Counted from the first letter of the stretch, positions 7,953-25,090 are shown. The stretch is 64,000 bases of DNA from Candidatus Kaiserbacteria bacterium (GCA_027451665.1 DAIDIW010000002.1:212254-276253), one strand, 5' to 3'. Notes: a model not told the origin generated them from the sequence alone. Numbers and translations: made by a program.

Positions 7953-8261
7953 ATGGACATGCGCATGCAGGTATACGATGCAGTTGCGAAGATTCCACGC
8001 GGCAAAGTGGCTACCTATGGCCAGATCGCCCGTATCGTCGGCGCGCCGCAAGCGGCGCGCGCGGTCGGCTATTTCATGCGCACGAATACGGACACCAACC
8101 GAGTTCCCTGCCACAGGGTCGTCGGACATGACGGGGCACTTGTGGGCTACGCCTTCGATGGTGTCGCGGAAAAACGGAAGCTGCTTATCGATGAGGGCGT
8201 CTCCTTCAGAGGACCGCGCGTGAATCTAAGTGTTTCGCTCTGGACGCCCGACCGCACCTAG
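7953..8261 (+). CDS. MGMT family O6-alkylguanine DNA alkyltransferase
   Basis: KIPRGKVATYGQIA, ARAVG and active-site VPCHRVV. Confidence 0.92.
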   Translation: MDMRMQVYDAVAKIPRGKVATYGQIARIVGAPQAARAVGYFMRTNTDTNRVPCHRVVGHDGALVGYAFDGVAEKRKLLIDEGVSFRGPRVNLSVSLWTPDRT

Positions 8262-8278
8262 CACTCGGAGCATATGCG

Positions 8279-9439: not shown

Positions 9440-9656
9440 GAATGAAGCAATTCTAAGACCTGGCAGGCTAATCCACAAATGAAGACGCACCGCGCAGATT
9501 CACACACGCTACATCATGCGTATGCGAAGGTATCGTCGTGCGACGTGCGGCACCGAGTCTGATCTGCAAAGATCCGATACGTCACGCATGCAGCAGCGGG
9601 CCGGTCGAACGCGTCGCGTAGCAATTACCAGCGTGTAATCGACAACCTTTATCTAT

Positions 9657-9863
9657 ATGTGGCAGCAATGGATAAATGCCATTCTTGGCGTATGGACGAT
9701 CATCGTCCCCTTCCTCGGCTTTACGGCCGCGACCTTTACGTGGGTCCTCGCGATTACTGGTATAGTAATCGCAGTACTTGCAATCTGGGGTGTTGGCGAG
9801 GAATCGACGGAGCGTCAGCATACGGCTGAGCTAGAATACCGTCTGGAGCATCAGCGCAGCTAG
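9657..9863 (+). CDS. SPW-repeat-like small membrane protein
   Basis: WQQWINAILGVWTIIVPFLGF; two TM helices; followed by a terminator. Confidence 0.75.
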   Translation: MWQQWINAILGVWTIIVPFLGFTAATFTWVLAITGIVIAVLAIWGVGEESTERQHTAELEYRLEHQRS

Positions 9864-9880
9864 GTGCGACACACCTCTCC

Positions 9881-9920
9881 AAGAGCGCGGGAGCCGCCGA
9901 AGCGGCTCCCGCGCTCTTTT
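9881..9920. terminator. Intrinsic terminator
   Basis: 17-bp stem aagagcgcgggagccgc/gcggctcccgcgctctt, CGAA loop, T tract; between convergent genes. Confidence 0.85.
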
Positions 9921-9932
9921 CGATCAACTTTG

Positions 9933-10541
9933 CTAGAACGTCATACCCGCGGGCGGCGTAAGGAGCGACGTGTCGATATTCCAGCTCGTACAGCTGAATG
10001 AAAGATTCGTGTTCGGATCAAGCGCGCCGTAACTTGCCATGACGCTTCCGTTGGCGCTCGTCGACGCCAGCAGCCTCAAGCCGCTCGTCGTGCTCGTGTA
10101 CCAGGCGTAGAGATAACTGCCGTCATCGAGCATCGAAGTAGCGACGGTACGGCCTCCAGGGACGCGAGCGATGTTTACCCGAGCTACGCCGTCAGCTACG
10201 AAGATATTCCCGGTCCGGCGTGCGCCATCGGCAAATCCGTCGAATGAACAGAAAAGGGGCTGCTTCTGGGTGCGCAAGTACGAAAGCGAATTAAAGCCCG
10301 TAAGCACGACTTTGGCCGTCATGGTCGGCGCTGGGGTTGACGCAGGCGCTGCCAGCCTCTTGGTCGTCACCTTCACGGCGGGCGTCGTGGGCGGTGTGCT
10401 GCTCGTAGCCATCGTCGTGGTTGCAGTCGCCGACGCCTGTCGTGTCGGCGATGACCAGTCCGTAGTGAAGTACCACGCACCAATAGCGAGCACGATGATG
10501 AGCACAGCCCATGCGAGTATCTGGTCTGTTTTCATATCCAT
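9933..10541 (-). CDS. Hypothetical exported protein with TM anchor and Thr/Pro-rich linker
   Basis: TM segment, T/P-rich linker, beta-rich domain with a Cys pair ending LLTPPAGMTF. Confidence 0.75.
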   Translation of the reverse strand: MDMKTDQILAWAVLIIVLAIGAWYFTTDWSSPTRQASATATTTMATSSTPPTTPAVKVTTKRLAAPASTPAPTMTAKVVLTGFNSLSYLRTQKQPLFCSFDGFADGARRTGNIFVADGVARVNIARVPGGRTVATSMLDDGSYLYAWYTSTTSGLRLLASTSANGSVMASYGALDPNTNLSFSCTSWNIDTSLLTPPAGMTF

Positions 10542-10646
10542 ACCTCGCATGCTAGCACTCCACCGGGCATTATGAAGAACTGCAGAGAGCGCTTCGGGGA
10601 TTGCGGGCGAATGGCTTACCGCAGGGCGTATGCGCCGCCATAGGAA

Positions 10647-10676
10647 AGGGGTCCGTCGCGTACGCGACGGACCCCT
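10647..10676. repeat. Perfect 30-bp palindrome
   Basis: aggggtccgtcgcgt|acgcgacggacccct. Confidence 0.95.
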
Positions 10677-10949
10677 CATTGCTGCCGGCATTCACTCATC
10701 GAGCAGCTCGCAACGGTCCTTCGGAAAGCAGAATTACTCCGAAGTCGTATATCTCAGCCCGCACCGGTCATCTCAATGTCACAAAGAGCGCAGTTGGGTT
10801 TCTGTGTGTGGACAGCCTGCATGGTAAATTTGATGAGGATGTCTGTGTGCCAATACTTAGCCTAATTGCTGAGATTTTGTACCGGCATCTTTGGAACTTG
10901 TCCGATTCCCTATGGGAATCATCGGAATAGCTGCATAAGGAGAGTGAAT

Positions 10950-11126
10950 ATGCCTACTAACGAGGGTCGTGCGCAAAAGAAAGGTCGCGATATCGGGTTC
11001 ACGTTCACGGAGGTCGGGACGATTACTTTTCCTAATGGGCAGACGGTGCCCAAGCTCGAAGGTCACCCGAACGATCCAGAAGCCCATCGCCGTCTCATGG
11101 AGCTAATCGAGAGTGAAGAAAACTAG
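10950..11126 (+). CDS. Small hypothetical protein (58 aa)
   Basis: AAGGAG SD before ATG 10950; terminator gcgcctgac-aca-gtcaggcgc-tttt downstream. Confidence 0.6.
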   Translation: MPTNEGRAQKKGRDIGFTFTEVGTITFPNGQTVPKLEGHPNDPEAHRRLMELIESEEN

Positions 11127-11200
11127 GACGCCGGCAAAAAGATCCCCACTCGCGCCTGACACAGTCAGGCGCTTTTGTTACGACACGAATGCATGGAGTA

Positions 11201-11245
11201 GCTAGGCAGCACTTTATGACGTGGTGTCATAAAGTGCTGCCTAGC
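11201..11245. repeat. Perfect 20-bp inverted repeat with 5-bp spacer
   Basis: gctaggcagcactttatgac-gtggt-gtcataaagtgctgcctagc. Confidence 0.95.
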
Positions 11246-11397
11246 CAAGTACCGTTCGCGGGCAGAAAATTCTTGCATGCCTGCACGTTCCTGCCGTTTG
11301 CTCGATACCGTCAATCGTCCGGTTTAGTCGTCTCGTCTGCCAGCACGGCCTGTGTAAGGCTCAGGCGATGATCGAGGCGCAGCAGCACGCGCGGCAG

Positions 11398-11597
11398 TCG
11401 GGAGACGCCTCCATGCCGTAGATCTCGCGCAGATGCTCGCAGATCTCCCGCGTGCTCATGCCCCGGCCGTACATCGAGATGATCTTCTCATCAAAGCCCG
11501 GAAACCGGCGCTGATATTTGGCGATCAGCTGGGGATCAAAACGCCCCTCCCGGTCCCGCGACACCGCGATGTCCACCTTGCCCGTACTGGTGGTCAC
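11398..11597 (-). pseudogene. Internal fragment of an IS256-family transposase
   Basis: TGKVDIAVSRDREGRFDPQLIAKYQRRFPGFDEKIISMYGRGMSTREI..HLREIYG matches the IS256 N-terminal region; no DDE domain or IS ends seen. Confidence 0.88.
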
Positions 11598-11675
11598 GGC
11601 TCAAGGGGTTGACTTGCAAAACTTTCCGCCACTGATAAATTTGTTCTTGGAACGTTCTGTGAACAGGAGGAGCCA

Positions 11676-11930
11676 TTGTCATCACAGCAGTCACTACTTG
11701 CATCACAAATGACCCTGACGATTCACCTAAATCCAACCAAGGAAGATCGTCGAGCTGTCACTTTGCTTCAAGAATTCAATGGGTCCGTAGCAATCATGCG
11801 CCTTGCGGCAGAGAAGAAGTTACTGTTACCTTCACTTGAAGTGAGGGGTGCACAATTCAGTGGTATCGAGCAAATTGAGCAATTCGTGGACAGCGCCCGG
11901 TCCGAAGGCGCGCCTGCTATTGCAATCTAA
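11676..11930 (+). CDS. Small hypothetical protein
   Basis: AGGAGG SD before TTG start; hairpin terminator at about 11943-11972. Confidence 0.6.
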   Translation: MSSQQSLLASQMTLTIHLNPTKEDRRAVTLLQEFNGSVAIMRLAAEKKLLLPSLEVRGAQFSGIEQIEQFVDSARSEGAPAIAI

Positions 11931-12020
11931 TCGTTCGCTCTAAGAGCGCCCCTTTCCGGGGCGCTGTCTTTATCTGCATCTGACCTTCGCCGAGAAGCGC
12001 TCCTCTGGAGGACGTGACAG

Positions 12021-12425
12021 ATGAGCGAGTTTCAATCGGGCGTCACCGCACAAGACAAATACAAAACACTCAAAGACGGCACAGTCGCCAAGTACATCTA
12101 CTACGGCTGTACACGATCGAAGGACATACACTGTAAAGGTGGGTACCTCGAAGAAAAAGTACTGCTCGCCCAGTTGTTAGAGATAATTGAAAAGCTGGAT
12201 CTTGATAAGACCGGCATGCGTCGTCAACTCGAGACTGAGATTGAGCGACATAAGGAGTTCAACGCAAGAATCCTTGGTCGTAAAGACGACTACCGAGCCA
12301 AGGATGTTGATATACGAAACTACGCAAAATATATTCTTGAGAATGGGACTGTCTTTGAAAAAAGAAGTCTCCTAGATTGTTTGAAGACTAAGATAATTCT
12401 GAAAAATAAAACTATTAGTACCTGA
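12021..12425 (+). pseudogene. C-terminal remnant of a large serine recombinase (zinc ribbon and coiled coil only)
   Basis: SGVTAQDKYKTLKDGTVAKYIYYGCTRSKDIHC parallels AAITAEEKMKKLAKGGVAHYTYYHCTKRKNPNC of the intact recombinase; first CxxC and catalytic domain missing. Confidence 0.85.
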
Positions 12426-12430
12426 TGGGA

Positions 12431-14203
12431 TTAGATGATAGACGACAAATTATCAAGGTTGACTCCACTAAGGGCAGATCCTGAGCCGCTTGGCGGTTCA
12501 GCTATTATGACTTTCTTGCCCTCTCCAAAACCAAGAGTGTAGGTGAATTTTCCTTCTTCGTAACTCATGCAATCTGGCAATAAAGTATCTTTCATTAGTT
12601 CTTCGTTCACCATTTTCTCGCCTGCATCGAGAAGTGGTTTTAGGTCAATGTAAAGCAATCTCCTCATTCTCTCTGCTTGTTCGCCGATCCATCCTTGTTT
12701 TTGGTTTCCGCCTGAAGCAAGATAAAACCCAATAAAGATCAGGTATGAACGCAACGCTGCGGGATAGTAACGTCTAATCACATTTGTGCCGATTTGTTCC
12801 CACATCCTTTTCTCGAATGGAGCACGATACCCTTCTTTTAACTGCGGGTCGTATATCATGCCGTGCAATAACTTTTGAACCGTGTGGTATGTATCATTGG
12901 ATTTCTTAATATAGGAAAGCTGATACATGCACTTGTATAAAGCAGCCGCAACACCTTCATTGATCGCTAAATCAGAATAGAAATTTGGCTCTTGGGCGGT
13001 TTTCTCTCGAGCGACGGTGTCGGTATTAAAGGTCTGATCGTTAGCAAGGTACAGATATCCATGCCCAAGGAAGTCTGCAATGATGCCCAAAGACCACCAC
13101 TCATCTTTTAGAGCATACTTTGTGTCTATTCCCCGCCTTTCTTCGATGTTTAGCTTTATACAGATATCAGCAAAAATATCGGCCAAATATTCAAAGCCAT
13201 TATTTATATGTCTTGGAGGAATTGCGCCTGTTTTCAAGTACGTTTCGATTGCTTCGGAAAGAGCCTTGATCAGCACTTCGATACCAGCGATACCAGTGTC
13301 CTTACGTTTAGCATGGCCAAGCGTTGGATAACCAAACAAATCAAAGTTAGTTAGCAGGATCGGAGATTTAAATACGGCCGTGTACACATTCGAAGAAAGA
13401 GCCAGCCCTTTATTGTCCAATTGTTTGTAGAAAAACGATTCATCATCATAGAAAAGACTGCTCATGAGCCTTGGAACTCCTATTCCTGATTGGCGCCGGC
13501 TTATACGATAATGCTCTATCGCGCCGAAAATATACAGGAGGCCGTCAAGGCGTTTTGTTGTTAGAAGGCGAACGATAGACTCATCACTTAAAACTACCTC
13601 GATGATTGAGATTGCATCTCCACTGAAGTCAGCCGATTTTGGATCGCGATTAACAGCGGCCTTGCAGACGGCGTCGAAATTTCTCAATAAAACCTCTAAA
13701 AGCGCGTTTAAACTCTCTTCGGTTGATCTAGAGATTTCTTGAACCATTACTTCATAGAATTTCCGAGATGTCTTTCTATTGAAAAGGCCTCGAGTCCTGC
13801 TTGCAAGGAACAACAAAGAAATGGGTGACGCGATGAAAAACAAATAAGCTAGGAGTTCATAGAAAAGAGTAAAATTCAGCGGGTAAGGCAAATACATCTC
13901 TGGGAATTGCGTGATGAGCACTCCAAGGAGAGTAAGAAAAAGTCCCATTCCTCCAAACACCCAAAACAGATTCCGTTCCCAGACGCTTCGAATTCTCAAA
14001 GCTATGTCCCACTTTGATCTTCTGAGCTGGTATACAGCAAAAATGAGACCGAAAGCAGCAAGGGCGGCTCCAAGATCAAGAGAGGATGGGAAGATGACTA
14101 TGTTGCCAGCACCACAAATAGGCTGAGAAGAGAAACTCAAGAGACAAGAGTGCAGGCCTGTACTGGATGCTTGTGTTAAGGTCGATATTTGAGTTTGGGA
14201 CAT
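12431..14203 (-). CDS. Hypothetical 590-aa protein with N-terminal TM helices
   Basis: Long AT-rich ORF, about 3 TM segments then a large soluble region; no motif recognised. Confidence 0.8.
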   Translation of the reverse strand: MSQTQISTLTQASSTGLHSCLLSFSSQPICGAGNIVIFPSSLDLGAALAAFGLIFAVYQLRRSKWDIALRIRSVWERNLFWVFGGMGLFLTLLGVLITQFPEMYLPYPLNFTLFYELLAYLFFIASPISLLFLASRTRGLFNRKTSRKFYEVMVQEISRSTEESLNALLEVLLRNFDAVCKAAVNRDPKSADFSGDAISIIEVVLSDESIVRLLTTKRLDGLLYIFGAIEHYRISRRQSGIGVPRLMSSLFYDDESFFYKQLDNKGLALSSNVYTAVFKSPILLTNFDLFGYPTLGHAKRKDTGIAGIEVLIKALSEAIETYLKTGAIPPRHINNGFEYLADIFADICIKLNIEERRGIDTKYALKDEWWSLGIIADFLGHGYLYLANDQTFNTDTVAREKTAQEPNFYSDLAINEGVAAALYKCMYQLSYIKKSNDTYHTVQKLLHGMIYDPQLKEGYRAPFEKRMWEQIGTNVIRRYYPAALRSYLIFIGFYLASGGNQKQGWIGEQAERMRRLLYIDLKPLLDAGEKMVNEELMKDTLLPDCMSYEEGKFTYTLGFGEGKKVIIAEPPSGSGSALSGVNLDNLSSII

Positions 14204-14398
14204 CGTACCTCTGAATGATAGACCTTCTCACCGAAGAAGGCCAAGAATCAAGTATTGATCCCTCTAGGGCGTTCGAGAAGAAAACTAGTGGGCTGCGGGG
14301 CTTGGACGATGTTAGAACTGTCCTTTTGACTGGTAAATCGCATTTCGCATATAAAATCACCATACCAGATTTGTTAGCGCGGGTGTAAACTGCGACGG

Positions 14399-14878
14399 AT
14401 GGACGACCTCTCCAACTACGAAAAGCTCCGCGCGGACGCGCAGCAGTTCTATAACGGCTTACGCCCCGTATTCTCGCCCGCGCTCAATGAGAATGTTCAC
14501 TTCACCGCCGAGGGCTTCAATCACATTATTTTCAAGGGGTCGCGTCGGGAGCGCGAGAAGCCCTCACAGATAATGCGCTTCAAAATGCTGGCGCGAGCGG
14601 CCAAGCTCATTGGCCTCTCCACCACATATCAGGAGTACGAGGAAACGCTACATGATTTTGAGGTCAAGAGCCACAAGAAACGCGTCCGCAAATCCAAACC
14701 CGTAAAGTATTGGGGTATCATCGCTATCATTGATGGACGCAAGATAAAGGTTATCGTGCGTAAAATCGGCGATAACGGGCAGCTTCACTTCTGGAGTGTA
14801 GTGCCCGCGTGGACGACAAACAAATACCGCGACGCCAAGTTCATCACCACGATGAAGGGCGACCCCGAGGAGGATTAG
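14399..14878 (+). CDS. Putative BECR/RelE-like fold nuclease
   Basis: VHFTAEGFNHII helix and C-terminal KIKVIVRKIG..GQLHFWSV strands resemble BECR-fold toxins; ORF is solid, function inferred. Confidence 0.55.
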   Translation: MDDLSNYEKLRADAQQFYNGLRPVFSPALNENVHFTAEGFNHIIFKGSRREREKPSQIMRFKMLARAAKLIGLSTTYQEYEETLHDFEVKSHKKRVRKSKPVKYWGIIAIIDGRKIKVIVRKIGDNGQLHFWSVVPAWTTNKYRDAKFITTMKGDPEED

Positions 14879-14884
14879 GCATAT

Positions 14885-14972
14885 CAAAAAACACCACACG
14901 GGGTGGTGCTCTTTGATATGCCTGCCTTCGGCTTATGTATTAGCCGAATAGGGCTGACGCCCCACAGGCACG
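14885..14972 (-). ncRNA. Candidate small structured RNA convergent on the nuclease gene
   Basis: Minus-strand promoter TTGCCG-16-TATACT with extended TG; two hairpins closed by a third stem; terminator with T6. Confidence 0.5.
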
Positions 14973-15087
14973 GAACTAGTATACCAGATTGGAGTGAAGC
15001 GGCAATGAGCTGGGGATTTCAAGCCTCGAGCCAAAAGCTTCAAGTTTACTCTTTCAGAAAGTCGTCCCCGAGAGGTATTATTTGCGA

Positions 15088-15618
15088 ATGGAAGCAACAT
15101 CGACGCTTGAACTCGCGAGCAGACTACTTGATTGGAAAGACTTGCTCTTGGCGGGATATTGGCTCGTTGGCGCTACTATTGTTGGCGTTTTGTTTCTCTG
15201 GTTCGTTTTTCGAAAACAGTGGCGCTTTTTCAAAAACATAAATAAACCCATCATCTTCATAAACCTGTCCGGTATAAGCGATGGGATGGACGTTGAAGCG
15301 AAGCTATTGCAGCGCAGTCGCTTCTTTTGTACACCGGAGGTTACGAGCGATTGTAGAAGCATCGACTTGGTCGAAAAGCAGAGCTTGGTCGTAATTGGTG
15401 TTAGCGATGCCACCGACGTGAAGCAGTTTGAGGCAATTTACCAAAAAATCGCTACACTCACGAAGCCGACTGTCATTTACACTCTAGGCGCACGTGGAAC
15501 CAGTTTCGTATCGAAAAGCGAGGCTCTCATAAAGGGATATTCTTTCCACACCATCGCCACGACGCCATTGCGTTTGGTAAGCGACATCTTCGCAATACTC
15601 TCTACATTCCCAGAATAA
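15088..15618 (+). CDS. Single-TM protein with C-terminal alpha/beta (receiver/TIR-like?) domain
   Basis: TM segment then alternating strand/helix pattern (IIFIN, LVVIG, TVIYT); converges on the nucleotidyltransferase. Confidence 0.65.
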   Translation: MEATSTLELASRLLDWKDLLLAGYWLVGATIVGVLFLWFVFRKQWRFFKNINKPIIFINLSGISDGMDVEAKLLQRSRFFCTPEVTSDCRSIDLVEKQSLVVIGVSDATDVKQFEAIYQKIATLTKPTVIYTLGARGTSFVSKSEALIKGYSFHTIATTPLRLVSDIFAILSTFPE

Positions 15619-15621
15619 GGG

Positions 15622-16398
15622 TCAGACGACCACTTGGTTCCAGTTGGTGCAACGAAGAGAAGCGGCAGCGGCATTTGCCACCAGACGCTTCTCGAGTGGG
15701 CTAAGCACGTCCGAAACAGCGTTGCTTCTATTCCCCGGGTCATATACTGTTGCAGTCTCGAAGTCGTCCCGCAAATATTCCAAGAAAGAAACAAATCGCT
15801 TCGAAATGGGTAAAAGAAGACCGAGTGGCATCGAGGCGTTCATGGCTGATAGCTCAAGGTAAAACGATGGAAAATCTAAATGGTGCTGGTCGCGCCAGAT
15901 TTTTGTGAGCTTCATTAAATCAGTCCGACCGGATTTCTTCACGGCCTCTATCTGCATACTCACGTTCGTCTTCACCCAAGTATTCTTTTTCCTCACGTAT
16001 ATCGAATGGTCGTTAGCGAGAAAAGCGCCACTTTGTAGCTTCCCGGGCACGAGGTCGACTTCTATAGCCCCGTAAGTGAGACCTATCGAAGAGTTTTGAA
16101 AGCGAGGTGAGTGACCGTTTGCCATCAAGAAGCTATGCAGGCTTTTATGGACATCGTTGAAGGTATAGGGAAGACCGGTTTTTAGGGAGATAAAAAGGTC
16201 TAAGTCAGCCGACCCTTTTATAGCAGTGCCCTTTGCATTAGAGCCAGAGAGTTGCACATAGTTTAGGTATGAGCCAGTCCATGCGCGTATGACCCTTTCG
16301 AGTTCGGACTGTGCATTACCCAAAGCAAACAGTCTCCGCAAATCAGTGGAAACCGAGTGACGCGTCAAGACGGAGTTTAGGTACGGGTCTGGGTTCAC
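15622..16398 (-). CDS. cGAS/DncV-like (CD-NTase/SMODS, OAS-like) nucleotidyltransferase
   Basis: SGSNAKGTAIKGSADLDLF, QNSSIG, EVDLVP, KLTKIWR, PSFYLEL, DPGNRSNAVS. Confidence 0.82.
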   Translation of the reverse strand: MNPDPYLNSVLTRHSVSTDLRRLFALGNAQSELERVIRAWTGSYLNYVQLSGSNAKGTAIKGSADLDLFISLKTGLPYTFNDVHKSLHSFLMANGHSPRFQNSSIGLTYGAIEVDLVPGKLQSGAFLANDHSIYVRKKNTWVKTNVSMQIEAVKKSGRTDLMKLTKIWRDQHHLDFPSFYLELSAMNASMPLGLLLPISKRFVSFLEYLRDDFETATVYDPGNRSNAVSDVLSPLEKRLVANAAAASLRCTNWNQVVV

Positions 16399-16431
16399 TA
16401 GGGTATTTTACCTCGTCGAGCACACAAAAGC

Positions 16432-17103
16432 CTAGAAGAACTTCAAAAACTCCTTGGTACGCTGTTCTTGTGGGTTTGAGATAAGCTTCTTGTCGCCGCG
16501 CTCAATGACCGCGCCGCCATCCATAAAGACGATATGGTCGCTGACGCGCTTGGCGAAGTTGATGAGGTGGCTGACTAGGAGTATGCCTACGCCCGAAGCT
16601 CGGAGTTTCTCAAGTAACGCCGCAACACGCTCTATCTGCTCAATATCCAAGGCCGAAGTAATCTCGTCAAGCAGAAGATATTTTGGTTTGAGCGCGATTG
16701 CTCGTGCGACTGCCGCACGCTGACGCTGACCAAGAGAGGTCTGATTAGGATAGCGGTCAATAAACGCTTCCATCCCGAGGGCTGCGACCAGCTCTGCAAT
16801 TTCGTCTTTAGTTGAGAGTTTTGCTAGAGTAATGTTCTGCCACAGCGTTAGATGAGGCCATAGGAATAGCTGCTGGAACACCATCGCCACGCGTGGCGAG
16901 GGGTGAGAGAGAACCTTGTCGTCCACCCGCACCTCTCCACTATCAGGAGCGTCCACCCCCGAAAGCACATTGAGCAGGGTGGTTTTGCCCGCGCCGCTCG
17001 GCCCGATAAGCGATACGATGCTGCTCGGCTCAATGGAAATATCTATGCTGTTCAAAATCAACCGTCCATCGCGCTTCTTTCCTATGTTGTGTGCGGTCAG
17101 CAT
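16432..17103 (-). CDS. Polar amino acid ABC transporter ATP-binding protein
   Basis: GPSGAGKT, SLGQRQR, LLLDEITSALD. Confidence 0.92.
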   Translation of the reverse strand: MLTAHNIGKKRDGRLILNSIDISIEPSSIVSLIGPSGAGKTTLLNVLSGVDAPDSGEVRVDDKVLSHPSPRVAMVFQQLFLWPHLTLWQNITLAKLSTKDEIAELVAALGMEAFIDRYPNQTSLGQRQRAAVARAIALKPKYLLLDEITSALDIEQIERVAALLEKLRASGVGILLVSHLINFAKRVSDHIVFMDGGAVIERGDKKLISNPQEQRTKEFLKFF

Positions 17104-17104
17104 A

Positions 17105-17767
17105 CTAGCGTTCGGAGAAATCACGAGTAAATCGCTCTCTCAAAACGTAGGCAAGATAGTAGAGCGGTGCAAGCACGAGCATAAAGAATATCGCGAGCGT
17201 AGTGTAAATCTCTACGGGTCGGTAGAGAACGGCATTGAGGTTCTGTGCTACGCGGAAAATCTCGGGAACCGAAATCAAGCTGGCGAACAGGGTAGCTTGC
17301 AAAATAAACAACTGCGTCGTGAGAACAGACGGGATGATTTGACGAAAAATCATCGGGAACTGGATGCGTCTGAAGATGTCGTTACTGGATAGCCCTGCCA
17401 TTTGTGCCGCGACGATGTACTGCTTCGGGAAGTCGGTGAGCACTCCTCTCACCAGTTCTGCGATAGCCGCGATGTTCACGATTGCGAGGGTGAGCACGGC
17501 CGTCAGGAACGGGCTAATCAAAATGCCGAGAAGCGACTGGAATGGATAGTAAAACCAGAACAGGAGAACGAGCAGCGGGATACCCGCCACAATGAACGAG
17601 GCCGTTTTGACCACCGCCCCTGCGGTTGGATTTCTCGCGCCCAGCACCCCAAACCCTGCGCCAAGGACAATACCGAGAACGGATACCGACAAGAACAGCT
17701 CAACGCTTACCAAGAGGCCTCCGAGAAGCGTTGGGTAGTAGTTCACCAGTATGCCGAGAACGGACAT
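17105..17767 (-). CDS. Polar amino acid ABC transporter permease
   Basis: GIPLLVLLF, AELVRG, EAA-like loop AAQMAGLS. Confidence 0.9.
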   Translation of the reverse strand: MSVLGILVNYYPTLLGGLLVSVELFLSVSVLGIVLGAGFGVLGARNPTAGAVVKTASFIVAGIPLLVLLFWFYYPFQSLLGILISPFLTAVLTLAIVNIAAIAELVRGVLTDFPKQYIVAAQMAGLSSNDIFRRIQFPMIFRQIIPSVLTTQLFILQATLFASLISVPEIFRVAQNLNAVLYRPVEIYTTLAIFFMLVLAPLYYLAYVLRERFTRDFSER

Positions 17768-17772
17768 TGTTG

Positions 17773-18630
17773 TTATTGCGCGTAGGGCGTTGCGGGCAGG
17801 AGATACGAATTAGATGAGGACTGATACTTGGCGACGATTTTTGCGACTGCGCCATCGTCTATGGCCTCTTGAAGCGCGACATTGAGCATCTGTTCCAAGC
17901 TACTTTCGCCAAGCGCAACCGCGTAGGCGTTTCCATAAAGGCGGAGTGGTGGAGTTTGGAGCTGACGCAGGGTGCCTGGGTTTGCTTGCAAGAACTCGGC
18001 GGCAGCATCGGGTTGTAAGAACGCAACATCGGCCTTGTTATCAATCACTTGGAGCGGGATTTGGTCAAAGGGCGCAGTCTGCGGCAGGCTGACCTGCTGC
18101 GCTTTTGGGTAATCCGATTGGGCGATTACTTGGCCGAGTTCACCGTCCTGTGTTGAGATTTTCACCGATGGGTCATTTATTGCCGCGAGATTGTTGTCAA
18201 AGCGATGGTCGCTTGTTCGCACATAGGCGTAGACGCCATTGTAGAACGCAGGGATGGTGAGATAGCCCGCCTTAGCGCGTGTGGAGTTAGCCCACAGACC
18301 GCCGCCAAACACATCGTAGCGACCTGCCGAAAGGTCGGTAAAAATCGTGCCGTATCCTGCCTCCTCAACCCACTGCACTTTCAAGCCGAGCTGTGCGGCA
18401 AGCGTGTTAGTGAGGTCATAGAAGATGCCCGAGAGCGCCCCTGTTTTCGGGTCTTGGATAACATACGGCGGATACGGGATGTAGCCAACGCGCATCGTGC
18501 CTGAGGAAATCACCTTGTTGAAGGCGGTATTTGAGGCAGTGGTTCCTTGCGAGCTATGGGTAAAGAGACCGACTACAATCGCAATAACGGCGAGGCCGAT
18601 AGCGATGTAGGAAAGGGTTTTATTTTCCAT
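17773..18630 (-). CDS. Amino acid ABC substrate-binding protein (family 3)
   Basis: GTMRVGYIPYPPY, G.LSGIFYDL, LSAGRYDV; N-terminal anchor. Confidence 0.9.
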   Translation of the reverse strand: MENKTLSYIAIGLAVIAIVVGLFTHSSQGTTASNTAFNKVISSGTMRVGYIPYPPYVIQDPKTGALSGIFYDLTNTLAAQLGLKVQWVEEAGYGTIFTDLSAGRYDVFGGGLWANSTRAKAGYLTIPAFYNGVYAYVRTSDHRFDNNLAAINDPSVKISTQDGELGQVIAQSDYPKAQQVSLPQTAPFDQIPLQVIDNKADVAFLQPDAAAEFLQANPGTLRQLQTPPLRLYGNAYAVALGESSLEQMLNVALQEAIDDGAVAKIVAKYQSSSNSYLLPATPYAQ

Positions 18631-18643
18631 ACAAAATATTGTA

Positions 18644-19336
18644 TCACCCCACTTGTGGTGCAGTAGCAAAGACAATGATTTCAGATGGCACCTCCACTAC
18701 CTCGGCCGAGTAGCCCTTCTCGGCAAGGAAGCTCTGTATCGTAGCGAGATACTTTTCGGGAAGATGTGGGTCAATGCCTTGCGAGGCGTAGTCATACATT
18801 CCCTTCACCAATCCGCCCTCAATGTTGTAGCCGTTGGAGATGGAGTAGATGACGAACGACCTCGCGACGCGCACGCTTTCTTCAAGCGCCTGTCGGGTAT
18901 CAAGGTTGGAGGCGTGGATTGCCCGCATAGAAACATATCCGTCGAAACTCTTATCGGGGAACGGCAGATGCTGGATGTCGCCGTGGACGACGCGGACTTC
19001 GGGATGCTTCTCGGAAATCTTTCCGAGCGCCGTATCGCTCAAATCCAGTGCAGTGATTTCAAAGTCCTTGAAGAACGGGATTTCAGCACCGCTATTTGCG
19101 CCAGCGATAAGGACTGACGGCCGTCCTGCACCCTGCACTGACGGCAGCACCTTCTCGACAAGCGCAGTCAGGGCGTCATCAAACTTGTGCTCGGTATCGA
19201 GTGCCCGCGCATCTTTTGCATACTCAAAATCGCCGTATTTCTCATTGAGCCGCGCGACCAGTTCGGGCAGTTTGTCTGACCGATTTGCTTGCGAGATTTG
19301 AGGGGCGGGGTTCTTCTGAAACCAGTTCCAGCGCAT
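18644..19336 (-). CDS. Class I SAM-dependent methyltransferase
   Basis: VLIAGANSG, TALDLS, GDIQHLPFPDKSFD. Confidence 0.85.
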   Translation of the reverse strand: MRWNWFQKNPAPQISQANRSDKLPELVARLNEKYGDFEYAKDARALDTEHKFDDALTALVEKVLPSVQGAGRPSVLIAGANSGAEIPFFKDFEITALDLSDTALGKISEKHPEVRVVHGDIQHLPFPDKSFDGYVSMRAIHASNLDTRQALEESVRVARSFVIYSISNGYNIEGGLVKGMYDYASQGIDPHLPEKYLATIQSFLAEKGYSAEVVEVPSEIIVFATAPQVG

Positions 19337-19360
19337 ATTACATTCGTATTTATGAAAGTG

Positions 19361-19840
19361 TCAGTCAATGAACCCACCGTGGTATGTGGCACGGTAAAGA
19401 GATTTACCGTTAAGTGAAATCTCCTCCGCGCCGCCGAAACGGTCAAGCTCGCCGTCTACGGCATTGCGATAAAGCCAGCCACCTTCCTGATGCACGGAAG
19501 GGCCGCGCACGGGAATTACGCTGCCGTGTGGTTGCATCAATGCCTTGCGCAGAAAATTGTAAACCTCCTTCTCGCTCGTGGCAGGGTCAAGGATGTAGCC
19601 GTAATAGTTCATCCCCCACACAGGCGTACCGCTCTTGTAGACAATCTCTCCACCGATGAAATCCCGTCCGCCGAAATAAGTGTCGTGGTAGGTGAGGTTG
19701 CCCTGCTCAAAGTGATAATCATCGGAGCGCGGGCGTGATGAAGGGGCTTTAGCGGCGTCCTTATTGGCGTAGGTGCTTTTGTTAGCGGCATCCAAGAAAC
19801 GCGTGAGTTCTTGAAGGTCAAGGGGGTTTGCGGCATCCAT
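19361..19840 (-). CDS. DUF5680-like protein
   Basis: YHDTYFGGRDFIGGEIVY...PVWGMNYYG, PVRGP, YHGG. Confidence 0.8.
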   Translation of the reverse strand: MDAANPLDLQELTRFLDAANKSTYANKDAAKAPSSRPRSDDYHFEQGNLTYHDTYFGGRDFIGGEIVYKSGTPVWGMNYYGYILDPATSEKEVYNFLRKALMQPHGSVIPVRGPSVHQEGGWLYRNAVDGELDRFGGAEEISLNGKSLYRATYHGGFID

Positions 19841-19869
19841 AACACCACTTTACCACCACCCGTCGTTTT

Positions 19870-20430
19870 TTATTTACCGAGGTCTACGAGCACTGTGCCA
19901 CCTCCCCAAATGCTGCCGTTGTACTGGAACTGCAAGCCCGTAGCGGTCTTGGGTATTTCAAACCCAACCCAGCCCGTGCGTTTGCTGTTAGCGATAATTG
20001 CGCCGTCTAGCGAGCTGCTCGGGTTTGACAGTTCCTTATCCGTAGCTGTTACCTGATAGCTATTGCCCTGCGCATCGCGGACGAACATCTGCCCTAGCGT
20101 TGTAACGTACTGCTGTGAGGATGACGTGTTTTGGATAGTTATGTTGAGGTCAAGCCACTCGTTGCCCGCGCTCGGAGAAGTAAACTGCCCACCGTCCGAA
20201 TAGCTGACACTGTTGACGGTGATGACCGAGCTGCCGAGCTGGATTTGGTCGCCGACCTTGTAAGTCGTCTGCGCCGTCTGTTGCGCAGGCGCTGCGGCGA
20301 TGCCATTGCTCCCGACCTTCTCGCTTGAAGGCGAGCTGCTCGCGCCGATGATTATGAGTACCACGAGAACCAAGCCCCAGAACCACCATCGTTTATAAAA
20401 CTTCTTCTTTGCTCCTTGTTGATTTTCCAT
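19870..20430 (-). CDS. DUF4352-like Ig-fold surface protein
   Basis: KKFYKRWWFW TM anchor; LNITIQN, RDAQGNSY, RTGWVGFEIPK. Confidence 0.82.
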   Translation of the reverse strand: MENQQGAKKKFYKRWWFWGLVLVVLIIIGASSSPSSEKVGSNGIAAAPAQQTAQTTYKVGDQIQLGSSVITVNSVSYSDGGQFTSPSAGNEWLDLNITIQNTSSSQQYVTTLGQMFVRDAQGNSYQVTATDKELSNPSSSLDGAIIANSKRTGWVGFEIPKTATGLQFQYNGSIWGGGTVLVDLGK

Positions 20431-20434
20431 ACGA

Positions 20435-20630
20435 GCGGCTAATGGATAAATCCAAGGGCGGGTACAGGAAACCCGCCACTAGGAAGGCCTTGCGGCCTCT
20501 ATAGGAGTTTCCCCCTATAACGCGATGAACGCCCTAATGACGGGTTTGCTAGGTTCATCGCGATTTTTGACCATACCTTGCGGCAGAGCGCCACTAGGGT
20601 TAGGTCAGCATCAACCTTTACCGGCTGACG
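20435..20630 (-). promoter_or_regulatory. About 200-nt structured 5' leader or ncRNA upstream of the DUF4352-ABC gene run
   Basis: Promoter TTCAAA-17-TAAGAT (extended TG) at 20637-20665 on minus strand; several hairpins, three with GNRA loops. Confidence 0.55.
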
Positions 20631-20703
20631 GGTACCATCTTAACACGTCAAAACTCGGCTTTGAAAACAGCTCGAGGAAGCGTAGATTTGAGGCAAAGAT
20701 TCA

Positions 20704-21447
20704 ATGAACCCCGAACAGAAAATCAAGCACGAAATCTGGCTCGTATTACAGCAGCTCAAAGAGGACTATCTGCTTACACCCGAGAATAACTACGCGGTCT
20801 ACGAAATCGCACAAGCCCGCGAGCACCCTAACTTCCCAACGCTTCATAATCAACTCAAAATCCTAAAGAAGCTAGAGCACGATGGAGCACTCAAGATAGT
20901 GCGCAGCTACTACGTAACTCGACGTGGCACGAGCCTCGCGGACGCAGTTGATTTTGGTATGTACCACGACGCAGACCCGAAAGGTATTTTGCTTGGTGTG
21001 CTGTTTCCGAGGTTTGATGAGCTATATGCCGAGTATTCGCAATACAGCGCCGAACCGATAACGCCTGAGATTGAGACAAAAAAGTACGTCATTGAGCTCA
21101 AAGACCGAGGGGTTTGGGTCAATGAATTTCTATTGAGCAGGCCGCACGCTACCGGTAAGAATATGGGCTTCTTTGAGTACGTGTTTGAGCATCCCGACAA
21201 ACTCATCTCACGCGATAGTTTGCCGAAGTTCGTACAACAGGACGTAGCCGCCCGCAGTTTTTCCAAGGTGCTCAATGACCTCGGCTTCAAGGGTGAGATA
21301 CTCAAGGTATTCTTCCCCGAACGGGGTAAAAGTCAGCTGCGGTTCAGAAAGGAAGTCACCTTGAGCCAGCTCGCTAAAAGCGGCATAAATACCGACTTGC
21401 TATTACAGGAGCTACGCCTCGCGCATTTGAAGAGCAGTCCGAAATAG
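20704..21447 (+). CDS. Hypothetical protein, possible winged-helix DNA-binding regulator
   Basis: 247-aa ORF; C-terminal FFEYVFEHPDKLISRDSL resembles OmpR-type winged-helix segments. Confidence 0.6.
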   Translation: MNPEQKIKHEIWLVLQQLKEDYLLTPENNYAVYEIAQAREHPNFPTLHNQLKILKKLEHDGALKIVRSYYVTRRGTSLADAVDFGMYHDADPKGILLGVLFPRFDELYAEYSQYSAEPITPEIETKKYVIELKDRGVWVNEFLLSRPHATGKNMGFFEYVFEHPDKLISRDSLPKFVQQDVAARSFSKVLNDLGFKGEILKVFFPERGKSQLRFRKEVTLSQLAKSGINTDLLLQELRLAHLKSSPK

Positions 21448-21474
21448 TCCGAAGTCATCCAGTTCAATCCGGAA
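21435..21474 (+). repeat. Four 10-bp-phased imperfect direct repeats
   Basis: cagtccgaaa tagtccgaag tcatccagtt caatccggaa; TCC at exact 10-bp spacing. Confidence 0.7.
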
Positions 21475-21516
21475 ACCAAGACCGCTTTATTTCAACGACC
21501 ATACTGCCAAGACAGT

Positions 21517-21702
21517 ATGGTCGTTTCTGATGCCCACATCGCCGAGTTCCAAAAACTCTACAGGGAGCATTTTGGCATTGAACTCCCGAAAGCGCAAGCG
21601 CTTGAGAAGAGCATCCGTCTCGTCCGTCTGATTGAAACCGTCAGCCGCGCTCTTGCAAAGGAGCAGGCCGAAATCCCTACCAACCTAATACCACCAACAT
21701 AA
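21517..21702 (+). CDS. Small helical protein typical of CPR mobile elements
   Basis: SDAHIAEFQKLYREHFGIELPKAQALEKSIRLVRL; first gene of the Rep operon. Confidence 0.75.
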   Translation: MVVSDAHIAEFQKLYREHFGIELPKAQALEKSIRLVRLIETVSRALAKEQAEIPTNLIPPT

Positions 21703-21703
21703 T

Positions 21704-22063
21704 ATGGAAACGCGTGATGATACCCAGCCTGCAACCGAAGAAGATATGAAAGCAACCTTTAAGAGCAGCGAGTGGCAGAAGTTAAAGGTTCTCATTGATG
21801 AGACAGAACAGCAAATGGAAGCGATGAACCTCGTCCCACTCAATAAGGGCGGTGAACAATATATCCGCGACCGCTACCCAATCGCCGTGCTCTATCACCG
21901 AGCTTATCTTCAAGATGTTGCGATGACCGAGTGCAATACGATGCTCACAGAAGAAGAAATCCAAAATATAGGATGCTCCTTCTTTGACGACTTTCCGGAT
22001 GAAATTTGGCTTGCGATTATCGAAGCAGTGAAGTTGGTCGTCAGCGAGCGCAATTCCTCTTGA
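21704..22063 (+). CDS. Hypothetical acidic protein
   Basis: 119-aa ORF starting 1 nt after the previous stop. Confidence 0.7.
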   Translation: METRDDTQPATEEDMKATFKSSEWQKLKVLIDETEQQMEAMNLVPLNKGGEQYIRDRYPIAVLYHRAYLQDVAMTECNTMLTEEEIQNIGCSFFDDFPDEIWLAIIEAVKLVVSERNSS

Positions 22064-22112
22064 GCTGCCTCGCAGGGTTCCTTGAAAAACACCGACAACA
22101 ACGAAAACAGCT

Positions 22113-23279
22113 ATGGATACCGTCATCATCAAACTCAATGGGTTCAAAGTCGCCAACATCTCGCTATTCCTGCCAGAACTCAATAAGCGTCGTTTCCAAG
22201 ACCTCTCGCCTACGGAGCGGCAGTCAACGCGTACTTACCTCCGTGCGTTTCGCTTTGAACCACCACACCAAGACGCGTACCTGCCAAAAATAGAGGTTTA
22301 CGAGGCACTGAATGATGACCGTAACGAGCTAACCTACACACTCCAAGCGAGGTTCTCTGTCCCGAAGCTCCTCTACGGCAACAGCGTGCAGGAGGTGAAC
22401 GATAACGACCTTGAACGCGTCATCTATGCTTTTACGAAGGCGCTAACAGGAGCAGGCATTGTCGTCAGTAGCACGACCGTCGCTAATGCTCGCGTTTCGC
22501 AGGTGGACTTCTGCAAAAATATAATCCTGCCACGCGACATACGGATGCAGGAGGTCTTGACCGAGTTGCAGCGCACAGATATCAGCAAAGCGATTGATAT
22601 GACCCAGAAGGAGTACAAGCACGGTGGCCGTACTCTCCACATTTATTCGCAAACCGTGGAGCGTGTCTTTTACGACAAGGTGAACGACGCCACGCGGCCC
22701 AAGGGCAAACGCAAGGATAAAGGGCATATTGAGCGCGAACGCGAAGTGATAGACCGCTATGGGTTAGCGAACCGCGAGATTTTCCGCTACGAGTATCGCT
22801 TGAAGAAAAATCAGGCCGTGAAGCAGAAAGTGAACGCCGCACTTAGGCGACCGTATCCAACAGTCGTTCAACTCAAAGACCTTTTCACGCCCAACCTTTG
22901 CAAAACGATTTTATTGCAATCGTGGCGCGACCTCATCCAACGCCCCGAGAACCAGCTCGCACTTCTCGGCCCAAAGGACGACCTTGCGCTCCTGCAGCAC
23001 ATAATGGGTGGAGCGCGTGAGCAGGGCGCGGTACACAGTATGAACCGTGCTTTCACCTCCTACGGCCTTACACGCGCCATACGCGACCACGGAGCAAAAG
23101 AAGTGCGTAAGGCAGCTGCGGGTTGGAACGCCAACCACGGCGAGCGCCTTACCAAGAAAATGAGAGTTGCGGCCGCACTTACCGAAGGGCTGCCGTATTC
23201 AAATAGTATCGCCGTTGTGTCTGCGTCACTTGAGCAGTTTGAGTACATTTCCCTTTCAACACTTGAAAATGTGGTATAA
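22113..23279 (+). CDS. Phage/plasmid rolling-circle replication initiator (gene II/X, Rep_trans-like)
   Basis: MDTV start, FSVPKLLYGN, VSQVDFCKN, FYDK (putative catalytic Tyr), RYEYRL. Confidence 0.75.
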   Translation: MDTVIIKLNGFKVANISLFLPELNKRRFQDLSPTERQSTRTYLRAFRFEPPHQDAYLPKIEVYEALNDDRNELTYTLQARFSVPKLLYGNSVQEVNDNDLERVIYAFTKALTGAGIVVSSTTVANARVSQVDFCKNIILPRDIRMQEVLTELQRTDISKAIDMTQKEYKHGGRTLHIYSQTVERVFYDKVNDATRPKGKRKDKGHIEREREVIDRYGLANREIFRYEYRLKKNQAVKQKVNAALRRPYPTVVQLKDLFTPNLCKTILLQSWRDLIQRPENQLALLGPKDDLALLQHIMGGAREQGAVHSMNRAFTSYGLTRAIRDHGAKEVRKAAAGWNANHGERLTKKMRVAAALTEGLPYSNSIAVVSASLEQFEYISLSTLENVV

Positions 23280-23423
23280 TAAACTCGTTGACCCACTTGT
23301 GAGCCGTTTGTCGCCAGAGGTTTTATCATTTATAGATAGCGGGGCGAAAGGGGCGGTCTGCCACTATCTGTATTCCTCTGGTTTACGGCATAAGTGGGTC
23401 AACCAGACCGTCCCTTTTGCTAT
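23272..23423 (+). promoter_or_regulatory. Extended -10 promoter and structured leader of the recombinase gene
   Basis: TGgTATAAT at 23272-23280; long hairpin 23287-23403; loop complementary to 23404-23420. Confidence 0.65.
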
Positions 23424-25031
23424 ATGAAAACTCACCAAAAAATCAAATACTTCGCCTACCTCCGTAAGTCGTCGGAAGGAAAAGAAAAACAGGCGCTCTC
23501 CATTCCTGCGCAACGTGCCCAGCTTTCAGAGCGCTTCTCTGATTTAGATATTGAGTTTGTGGAAGAGGAACGTAGCGCTTTTCTGCCACTCAATCGGCCG
23601 AGGTTCAGCGATATGCTCCTGCGCGTCCGTAGTGGCGAGCGGCAAGGACTGCTCGCGTGGCATCCCGACCGCCTTTCTCGCAATGAGGTGGATGCGAGCG
23701 CGATTACTTATATGCTCCGCACGGGCGAACTCAAAGACCTCAAGTTTGCCACCTATCATTTTGAGAACAACTCGCCCGAGGGTATTTGGATGTTGCAAAT
23801 GGCACTCTCGCAGTCGCAATACGAGAGCGCGAAGAAGGGGCGCGATGTGAAGCGCGGTACCGCACAGAGCGCAAAGAGCGGTTTTTATCCCGCGCCAGCA
23901 CCTATCGGATACCTCAATGACAAGTTCACCGAGCGTGGAAAGAAAAAGAAGCGCCCCGACCCCGAGCGCTTTGCTCTCACACGCAGACTTTTTGACTTGA
24001 TGCTGACAGGCAACTATACGCCTCCGCAAATCCACGACATAGCCGTAAACGAGTGGGGCTTCCGTGGGCCGAAGGGCCGCAAACTTTCCCGCAGTAGTGT
24101 CTACAACATCTTCACTCGGCCGTTCTATTTCGGCGAGTTCGAGCATCCCGCAGGAAGCGGTATTTGGTATAAAGGCGACCACGAACCGATGATTACCCGC
24201 GAGGAATATGACCGTATCCAGTTCCTGCTTGGGCGTAAGGGTAACCCGCGACCGAAGGAACATAAAGACATCGCTTATCGCGGCCCCATGAAATGCGGCG
24301 AATGCGGAGCAGCGATTACCGCCGAGGAGAAGATGAAAAAGCTCGCCAAGGGCGGTGTCGCACACTATACCTACTACCACTGCACTAAGCGCAAGAACCC
24401 GAACTGCTCGCAGCATTCCATTGAGGAGACAAAGCTGGAAAAGCAAATCGCTAAGGAACTTGGGAAGCTCAAAATCCCCGCTGGCTTTACCGCGTGGGCG
24501 GTCGCGCGGCTGAAAGACCAGAACGCCAAAGAGATTACTGACCGCGAGGTGGTCTACAGCAATCAACGCAAGGAGTACGAGGCATGCGTCCGCAAGATAG
24601 ACAACCTGATTGATATGCGGGCAAACAGCGAGATTGACGAGCAGGAGTTCAGGAGCAGAAAGGAAACGCTTCTCGCCGAAAAGGAACGCACTCAAGCACT
24701 CCTGCTAGACACAGACAAGCGCGTAGAGAATTGGCTTGAGGTCGCAGAGCGCGGCTTCAATTTCGCAGAGAAAGCGCCAGCCGTATTCGCCAAGGCAGCG
24801 GCAGATGAGGACTTTGCGACCTGCAAGGAGATATTTACGGCTCTGGGTTCGAACTACACGCTCATAGACGGAAAGTTGAGCATTTCCTTGGATAATCTGC
24901 TGTTCCCGATACAGGAAATCGCGGATGCAATCTGCGACATTCCCTCTCCGTTAGAACTAGAGAAAAACAAAGGAGATGCAAAGGATTTCGGACAACTCTA
25001 CGCCGAAAATCCACGAGTGCTGGGGGACTAG
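23424..25031 (+). CDS. Large serine recombinase (integrase)
   Basis: YLRKSS catalytic Ser, DRLSRN, APIGY, recombinase domain (HEPMITREEY), CGECG...YYHC zinc ribbon, coiled coil. Confidence 0.95.
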   Translation: MKTHQKIKYFAYLRKSSEGKEKQALSIPAQRAQLSERFSDLDIEFVEEERSAFLPLNRPRFSDMLLRVRSGERQGLLAWHPDRLSRNEVDASAITYMLRTGELKDLKFATYHFENNSPEGIWMLQMALSQSQYESAKKGRDVKRGTAQSAKSGFYPAPAPIGYLNDKFTERGKKKKRPDPERFALTRRLFDLMLTGNYTPPQIHDIAVNEWGFRGPKGRKLSRSSVYNIFTRPFYFGEFEHPAGSGIWYKGDHEPMITREEYDRIQFLLGRKGNPRPKEHKDIAYRGPMKCGECGAAITAEEKMKKLAKGGVAHYTYYHCTKRKNPNCSQHSIEETKLEKQIAKELGKLKIPAGFTAWAVARLKDQNAKEITDREVVYSNQRKEYEACVRKIDNLIDMRANSEIDEQEFRSRKETLLAEKERTQALLLDTDKRVENWLEVAERGFNFAEKAPAVFAKAAADEDFATCKEIFTALGSNYTLIDGKLSISLDNLLFPIQEIADAICDIPSPLELEKNKGDAKDFGQLYAENPRVLGD

Positions 25032-25090
25032 GATTCGAACCTAGATTGACGGGACCAAAACCCGCTGTCCTACCATTAGACGATCCCCCA
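25020..25090 (-). tRNA. tRNA-Gln(TTG)
   Basis: Cloverleaf tggggga...tcccccag, anticodon loop tt-TTG-gt, GGTTCGAATCC; no encoded CCA. Confidence 0.95.

Follow-up and report, generated by a model that had tools for sequence, protein, structure and literature searches.

The countertranscript attenuators of the pT181 type, a class that also includes those of the pIP501 type, are the described systems closest to the RNA element considered here, a 137-nucleotide (nt) leader that precedes the gene for a large serine recombinase (integrase) in a 64-kilobase (kb) stretch of DNA from a Candidatus Kaiserbacteria bacterium (DAIDIW010000002.1:212254-276253; hereafter the window, from whose first letter all positions are counted). 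Leaders with two exclusive folds of similar energy, decided between during transcription, are also known from riboswitches, T-boxes and protein-controlled terminators, while in the repZ messages of IncI and IncB plasmids a loop pairs with sequence beside the start of a mobile-element gene, forming a pseudoknot that activates translation. In pT181, binding of a cis-encoded antisense RNA sequesters an anti-terminator, and the resulting terminator can cover the ribosome-binding site too (accessible text of PMC5435934). A structured RNA encoded beside a recombinase gene is further described for the IS110 bridge RNAs or seekRNAs (accessible text of PMC13604230).

The leader occupies positions 23287-23423 (plus strand), as the predicted 5' leader of the recombinase gene, and consists of an arm A, a segment B, a second arm A' and a segment B' (Table 1), the helix-forming part of the last being 23404-23420. 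Pairing of A with A' gives a long hairpin (state 1), and pairing of B with B' gives a helix near the start codon (state 2). We propose that this leader probably acts in cis, at the predicted 5' end of the recombinase message, as a two-state on/off switch for integrase production. With the pT181 repC attenuator, as far as PMC5435934 is accessible, it would share the location in the 5' leader of a mobile-element gene, a default ON state and an alternative hairpin that is a terminator also covering the translation start. It differs in that the 5' strand of the terminator stem is what the anti-terminator pairs with in pT181, whereas here arm A pairs with the interior of the terminator-like hairpin and the two strands of its stem stay unpaired and separated; in that the pT181 trigger is an antisense RNA, whereas no counter-promoter was found here; and in that the gene is a serine integrase and the leader has no Rfam sequence match. 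By analogy, it might be regarded as a terminator/antiterminator leader closest to pT181, which fails two features that define pT181, the antisense promoter and the pairing of anti-terminator with terminator stem. Unlike in riboswitches and T-boxes, no separate aptamer, specifier loop or leader peptide is seen, and the whole leader appears to be the platform; its conserved unpaired bases are few (the U loop and the core of B). In contrast to repZ, the prediction here is that the loop-to-3' helix and the hairpin exclude each other and that this helix is repressive. Unlike the bridge RNAs, the leader showed no target- or donor-matching segment in a comparison that covered the tRNA target, belongs to a large serine recombinase and swaps between recombinase lineages.

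From sequence comparison, the leader is both conserved and uncatalogued. In Rfam 15, no family scored above its gathering cut-off; the chance matches reached 17 bits (E 0.9-9), with none at the leader in 12 homologous loci. No description of such a leader, or of RNA-level control of a serine integrase, was found in the accessible text of the literature searched, which is largely open-access; the motif surveys PMC5737381 and PMC11109978 hold nothing relevant in their main text, and their supplementary motif descriptions could bear on novelty. The original prediction, made from the DNA of the window, that serine integrases have no described equivalent thus stands for Rfam and this literature.

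Structure, promoter context and covariation of the leader

From the predicted start, G23287, to the AUG at 23424 is 137 nt, and every helix of the original prediction is present at its coordinates. The basal helix of the hairpin (23287-23300/23390-23403) has 13 Watson-Crick pairs and 1 G-U pair and is followed inward by gccgt (23303)/acggc (23385), ccagagg (23314)/cctctgg (23375) and atagatag (23332)/ctatctgt (23364). The B:B' helix (23344-23360/23404-23420), with 15 Watson-Crick and 2 G-U pairs, ends 3 nt 5' of the ATG, and it is the sole helix of at least 17 base pairs (bp) with at most 2 G-U pairs and a loop of 20-110 nt on either strand of the window. The RNA fold of the leader has an energy of -59.1 kcal/mol (z -4.65), which none of 200 shuffles equaled; folded as DNA, it gives a z of -3.14.

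A predicted extended -10 element precedes the leader and, as had been claimed, overlaps the stop codon of an upstream Rep-like gene (TATAAT 23275-23280 over TAA 23277-23279). The usual spacing from -10 to +1 places +1 on G23287. This arrangement recurs in the family, for which we give statistics over 67 unique copies, or over 64 after dropping three in which no -10 was placed (L029, L042 and L080); L039, L049 and L067 were missed by the 13-bp detector and lie outside both sets. In 62 of the 67, the -10 hexamer lies 6 nt 5' of the first hairpin base, so that the hairpin starts 7 nt after the -10, and TG is present at -15/-14 in 29/64. In 16/64 loci, involving three unrelated upstream gene families, the stop codon of the upstream gene ends 7 nt 5' of the predicted +1 because the stop lies inside the -10.

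The covariation of both helices, a test named with the original prediction, is extensive: 94.9% of cells are paired and 17 of the 26 pairs have changed on both sides, a level reached by none of 500 shuffles, against 28-52% in slid registers. When the basal helix is placed on anchors independent of pairing, 663/768 cells are paired (153-394 in slid registers). In 25 copies found without a DNA pattern, whose detection required the core and at least 4 inner pairs, the inner part of B takes 14 different sequences of 5-8 nt, every one matched in B'; in 24 of these copies, the wobble of the core is a G-U pair. G-U outnumbers A-C by 58 to 4 in B:B' and by 41 to 18 in the basal helix, which marks the plus strand as the one that folds as RNA, as the G-U pairs of the window had suggested. 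Together with the fixed -10, this bias supports the idea of a plus-strand RNA made from its own promoter before the integrase start. Because plain MAFFT alignments handle the long arms poorly, B:B' is the one helix that RNAalifold finds on them, and model R1 consequently holds 15 pairs.

Copies of the leader were found by several routes. Homology to the recombinase fetched 29 foreign loci, 27 with upstream DNA, and 14 of these 27 have the leader. Scanning GTDB genomes with a sequence pattern yielded 67 loci (45 with Candidate Phyla Radiation [CPR] labels, 12 labeled only "bacterium" and 10 with other labels); 62 bear the full leader, all 5 without it having non-CPR labels. Of these 62 copies, 55 scored at least 67 bits with a model built largely from the same copies, and 7 are unscored duplicates of earlier loci. 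A same-strand recombinase match lies downstream in 61/62, and the remaining sequence ends 153 nt later in a resolvase-like start. A metagenome scan added 28 loci, with a recombinase downstream in 24 and at most 166 nt left in the other 4. A model search blind to gene context found the leader in at least 9 of 150 genomes of the phylum (8 before a serine recombinase, 1 near a contig end) and in at least 4 of 150 within the order, 22 candidates having been scored per genome. A related recombinase is present in 265/401 genomes of the order, a tally that includes genome G250. The leader was not found in 100 other genomes of the non-CPR phylum to which G558 is assigned, and the match in G558 itself may be a misbinned contig. 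Viral contigs held no recombinase relative and no pattern match, and blastn against phages and plasmids gave no leader match.

The leader occurs with three deep recombinase subfamilies, and its identity between loci is almost independent of that of the recombinase (rho 0.15 over 59 loci), with leaders as similar as 93% on proteins of 38% identity; as the leader barely tracks the protein, it is a swappable module. Recombinases that share 20-40% identity still have the GGGC/GUCC core, wobble included, in their leaders. In the close relative L033, a Rep gene adjoins the recombinase without any leader.

Several copies deserve separate mention. In the same genome, a divergent paralog (L107, G000:C9:8770-8975) stands before a gene for a 1056-amino-acid (aa) N6-methyltransferase-type protein; all four segments and a long U tract are present before that gene (8770-8945), and its start codon falls within a second copy of the 5' strand of the basal helix, so that a third pairing might be possible. 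A longer paralog, L086:4752-4905 (+), lies back to back with a recombinase module, before an unknown open reading frame (ORF) with a hydrophobic start. L063 and L110, a pattern match and a phylum-level match, have near-identical recombinases and leaders and are either the same record or a recent transfer. The leaderless recombinases L013, L014, L015 and L030 have, read by eye, a small excisionase-like helix-turn-helix ORF directly upstream, which might be an alternative control module.

Two probably exclusive folds and the proposed switch

The linker from A' to B' is 0 nt in 58/64 copies and 1 nt in 6/64, and that from B to A' is 1-2 nt in 43/64. In A-form geometry, linkers of 0-2 nt cannot bring together the two ends of a stem of some 30 bp, and simultaneous helices would also need both ends of a 13-22-nt helical strand on one base pair. 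Near-zero linkers therefore make this a two-state RNA and not a knot; the two covarying helices are likely unable to form together, and on this geometry a full pseudoknot is implausible. The original prediction had left open a two-state or a pseudoknotted gate, and of these only the former is retained; an H-type pseudoknot was rejected on the same linkers, the long crossing loops being absent.

We consider it very improbable that the leader is a folded single-stranded DNA (ssDNA) origin or attachment (att) substrate used by Rep, as had also been suggested, or a true pseudoknot with both helices. The Rep-like gene directly upstream in the window, the fold as DNA noted above and the formally H-type topology would agree with such roles, but Rep is directly upstream in only 9/64 loci, and in the three nearest relatives its place is taken by a tyrosine recombinase. 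The G-U bias, the boundary fixed relative to the -10, the variable spacing of the arms (37-51 nt in most copies), the likely integration site at a tRNA 1.6 kb away and the linkers likewise speak against them. As a rolling-circle origin of a Rep_trans/G2P initiator, the leader was rejected on the inconstant Rep linkage and on L033, which has Rep and recombinase but no leader.

The energies of the two states are close (median difference -3.8 kcal/mol, state 1 lower in 49/67), their hairpin energies correlate (rho 0.56), and the nested barriers between them are 20-55 kcal/mol; the molecule should therefore remain in whichever state it takes first. Nascent-chain folding gives at least 5 A:A' pairs in 62/64 copies once 20 nt of A' have been made, and state 1 is thus predicted to come first. 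In state 2, A' is predicted to fold on itself (CCAC-UAU with AUAAGUGG, a 6-nt bulge and an apical loop near 23376-23380), and across the family this apical loop lies 12-18 nt from B. Covariation, linkers and computed nascent folds together point to two exclusive folds with ON as the default.

The state adopted would matter for translation. Opening positions -17 to +13 around the AUG of the window costs nothing (0 kcal/mol) in state 1, whereas masking of A raises the cost to 23.5 kcal/mol; the family medians are 3.8 and 20.8 kcal/mol, with the masked cost higher in 51/62. The AUG comes a median of 7.5 nt after the helix and within 10 nt in 43/62. Loss of the anti-Shine-Dalgarno (anti-SD) sequence is reported in Parcubacteria (accessible text of PMC9297842), in line with the 16S tails of this genus, which lack CCUCC in 5/5 loci read, and genes without SD need open start regions (accessible text of PMC5397173). 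The host genome shows no SD enrichment (50 versus 44 of 346). 16S rRNA was rejected as a pairing partner, since A, B and B' pair with it no better than with its reverse complement; a leader peptide was also rejected, an ATG occurring in arm A in 28/64 only.

State 2 may also resemble an intrinsic terminator, in which case both transcription and translation might be controlled. Directly after the GC-rich core comes UUU in 61/64 copies, and in 20/21 unique metagenome copies for which the pattern left those bases free. A simple terminator scan does not call the state-2 hairpin; a survey of host terminators, too small to calibrate such calls, found 30 hairpins among 396 gene ends, UUU being present in 5. 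No Rho was found in the host genome, which is 97% complete.

The switch that we propose would work as follows. During transcription, arm A is predicted to capture A' as it emerges, forming the long hairpin; the distance between B at the tip and B' at the base would then prevent their pairing, so that no terminator would form and the start region would stay open. This ON state would be the default, as required upon entering a new host. If arm A were held elsewhere while A' and B' are made, A' would fold on itself and B would pair with B'; the resulting hairpin would terminate a fraction of the transcripts at the U run and, in those that escape termination, cover the region where ribosomes land (OFF).

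A number of points weigh against this proposal. The promoter, start site, folds and termination are predictions. The leader is absent from 13/27 related recombinases with upstream DNA, 49 of the 64 copies came from a pattern that fixes the core of B, and the copies are related, so that shuffle counts overstate significance. The self-fold of A' is weak compared with shuffles (median z -1.3, negative in 59/64 but below -2 in only 11/64). The AUG lies more than 20 nt from the helix in 9/62 copies, with no better U tract there (4.2 versus 4.3). U tracts are moderate (4-5 U of 8 after the core in 56/64), and that of the window has 3 of 8 after the full helix; we therefore expect leaky termination backed by occlusion. 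As to the trigger, a conserved antisense promoter was not found, a minus-strand -10 occurring in just 11/64 copies at scattered positions, and no upstream gene is common to all loci, the largest family reaching 28/64.

Candidate triggers and alternative roles

Within this model, the holder of arm A could be an element-encoded protein that accumulates once the element is established and has as its binding site the conserved U-rich loop or the basal GUUGACCC strand, a suggestion that we make tentatively. A run of at least 5 U is present in arm A in 54/64 copies. The commonest upstream neighbor, the family found at 28/64 loci, is a protein of about 200 aa with cysteine motifs and no Pfam match (e.g., L022:3197-3799 (-) and L096:2629-3258 (-)). 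A 61-aa helical protein encoded in the window belongs to a family whose profile matches within the fetched DNA of 23/64 leader loci and 5/16 leaderless recombinase loci. A pairing partner elsewhere in the host genome was not found, the best match being 12 nt (E 4.5).

Alternatively, the trigger might be a countertranscript, as in pT181: an antisense RNA on arm A, arising from a weak internal promoter or by read-through from the tRNA when the element is integrated, would force the terminator. This is the logic of pT181 (accessible text of PMC5435934); a YUNR motif lies in the state-2 apical loop in 53/64 copies against a background of 19%, and the tRNA is convergent with the recombinase wherever one was found (55/55). 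We nevertheless consider it unlikely: besides the scarcity of minus-strand -10 elements, a promoter-level score on that strand occurs in 5/64 copies, below the coding-region control, and nowhere in the window, in a consensus scan that can miss other promoter types. Internal promoters built on a TTGACC hexamer number 1 and 2 of 64. Further, the YUNR loop belongs to A' rather than A, and plain cUUCGg tetraloops account for 16 of the 53.

Another option dispenses with a ligand. The leader would always fold ON and a nuclease acting on arm A, either RNase III in the long stem or one that cuts the U-rich loop, would collapse it to OFF after brief translation, making it a timer. Long stems with internal loops resemble RNase III substrates, RNase III is present in the host, the U-rich loop is conserved, removal of A forces state 2 in computation, and no trans factor was found. 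But a cut through both strands would take B away and fix the message in the open rather than the closed form, and the UUU next to the core and the inner hairpin fit a decision taken during transcription, and we regard such a timer as rather unlikely.

It is also conceivable, if quite doubtful, that leaders silence each other in trans as copies or co-resident elements accumulate, B of one RNA pairing with B' of another. Both are unpaired in state 1; the predicted net gain is -30 kcal/mol in the window (median -22.5), with a best 8-bp seed of -15.5; and the core with its wobble is kept across divergent recombinases, as described above. This case is purely computed. Moreover, a 17-bp helix cannot be wound between a closed loop and an internal strand, the inner segment differs between co-resident copies (L001/L107 and L036/L122), and the CC:GG extension and inner hairpin indicate pairing in cis. 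A related possibility, which we also rate as unlikely, is dose sensing: with the hairpin as a strut that prevents terminator and start-codon pairing purely by distance, while a conserved loop and a conserved tail remain available for pairing between molecules, the leader would be its own antisense, and copies or co-resident CPR elements would count each other and shut off their integrases without protein or countertranscript.

Finally, the leader might be an RNA cofactor or guide bound by the recombinase, in the manner of bridge RNAs. Its tight linkage to recombinases over three deep subfamilies would fit, and a terminated RNA of 130 nt could exist by itself. A guide RNA is not supported, no cognate match to the target tRNA having been found: the longest word shared with the cognate tRNA region is 7.25 nt, versus 7.28 nt for non-cognate regions (55 loci, 12 tRNA kinds; this covers the tRNA target side only, the donor site being unmapped), and a guide or bridge RNA was rejected on this ground. 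The near uncoupling of leader and recombinase identities, the absence of the leader from L033 and the paralogs before a methyltransferase-type gene and an unknown ORF argue against a cofactor, and we hold either role to be highly unlikely.

Genomic setting and significance

The main features of the locus are collected in Table 1.

Table 1. Features of the leader and its surroundings in the window
Feature	Position	Strand	Basis
Extended -10 promoter element (TG-n-TATAAT), contains Rep stop codon	23272..23280	+	sequence; presumed activity
Arm A, 5' strand of state-1 long hairpin, begins at predicted +1 G; U-rich internal loop 23321-23330	23287..23342	+	
Segment B: state-1 apical loop; state-2 5' strand of off helix	23344..23360	+	
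Arm A': state-1 3' strand of long hairpin; state-2 self-fold predicted	23361..23403	+	
Segment B': state-1 single strand 5' of AUG; state-2 3' strand of off helix; U run 23415-23418 3' of GC-rich core	23404..23423	+	
Large serine recombinase, 535 aa (Resolvase, Recombinase, zinc ribbon)	23424..25031	+	PF00239, PF07508, PF13408 above cut-off
tRNA-Gln(UUG), convergent with recombinase, likely integration site	25019..25090	-	
Rep-like gene (Phage_CRI, G2P type), adjoins leader here	22113..23279	+	PF05144 E 8.7e-6
61-aa helical protein, family common in these elements, candidate regulator	21517..21702	+	

The host genome (720 kb, 9 contigs) is treated here as patescibacterial, as its relatives bear CPR labels. 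The recombinase, whose domains and YxRxS start are those of a large serine recombinase, lies at the right edge of a low-GC island that starts near 12000, and its 3' end overlaps that of the tRNA-Gln gene. A convergent tRNA 3' of the recombinase is found in 55/64 family loci and belongs to 12 isotypes. No left att copy was found: comparison of the tRNA end with 8000-23000 gave just chance-level matches of 8-14 nt. The Rep-like gene, a neighbor in the window, is no constant component of the system. Two other elements have matches to group I introns at their tRNA end (L019:3142-3503 and L022:1197-1406).

The island holds further features. At its left end, a 134-aa remnant of a second serine recombinase, the zinc-ribbon part (12021-12425, +), suggests tandem accretion of elements, and a perfect 20-bp inverted repeat with a 5-nt spacer (11201-11245) lies near this edge. 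A SMODS-like nucleotidyltransferase (15082-16398, weak Pfam match), convergent with a gene for a 178-aa membrane protein, possibly forms with it a defense pair like that of cyclic oligonucleotide-based antiphage signaling systems (CBASS). The Rfam LOOT RNA (RF03000) matches 20484-20606 (-) with 80.5 bits, 54 nt 5' of a run of cargo genes on the minus strand, the first of which is a DUF4352 gene; in plus-strand reading, its middle hairpin is followed by ATTTTTG. Though present in the same island, it is a separate locus 2.7 kb off with a different sequence and fold, against which the leader scores nothing, and inspection of the window by eye found no convincing complement that would make it a partner of the leader.

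If the proposed switch is real, it would be the control point of the integrase for a very common class of islands in CPR bacteria, uncultured organisms whose gene control is little known. Its design, in which an anti-terminator holds two free strands apart, is compact and portable between genes and might serve as a part for synthetic biology. The identity of the trigger would reveal how these elements sense their own establishment.

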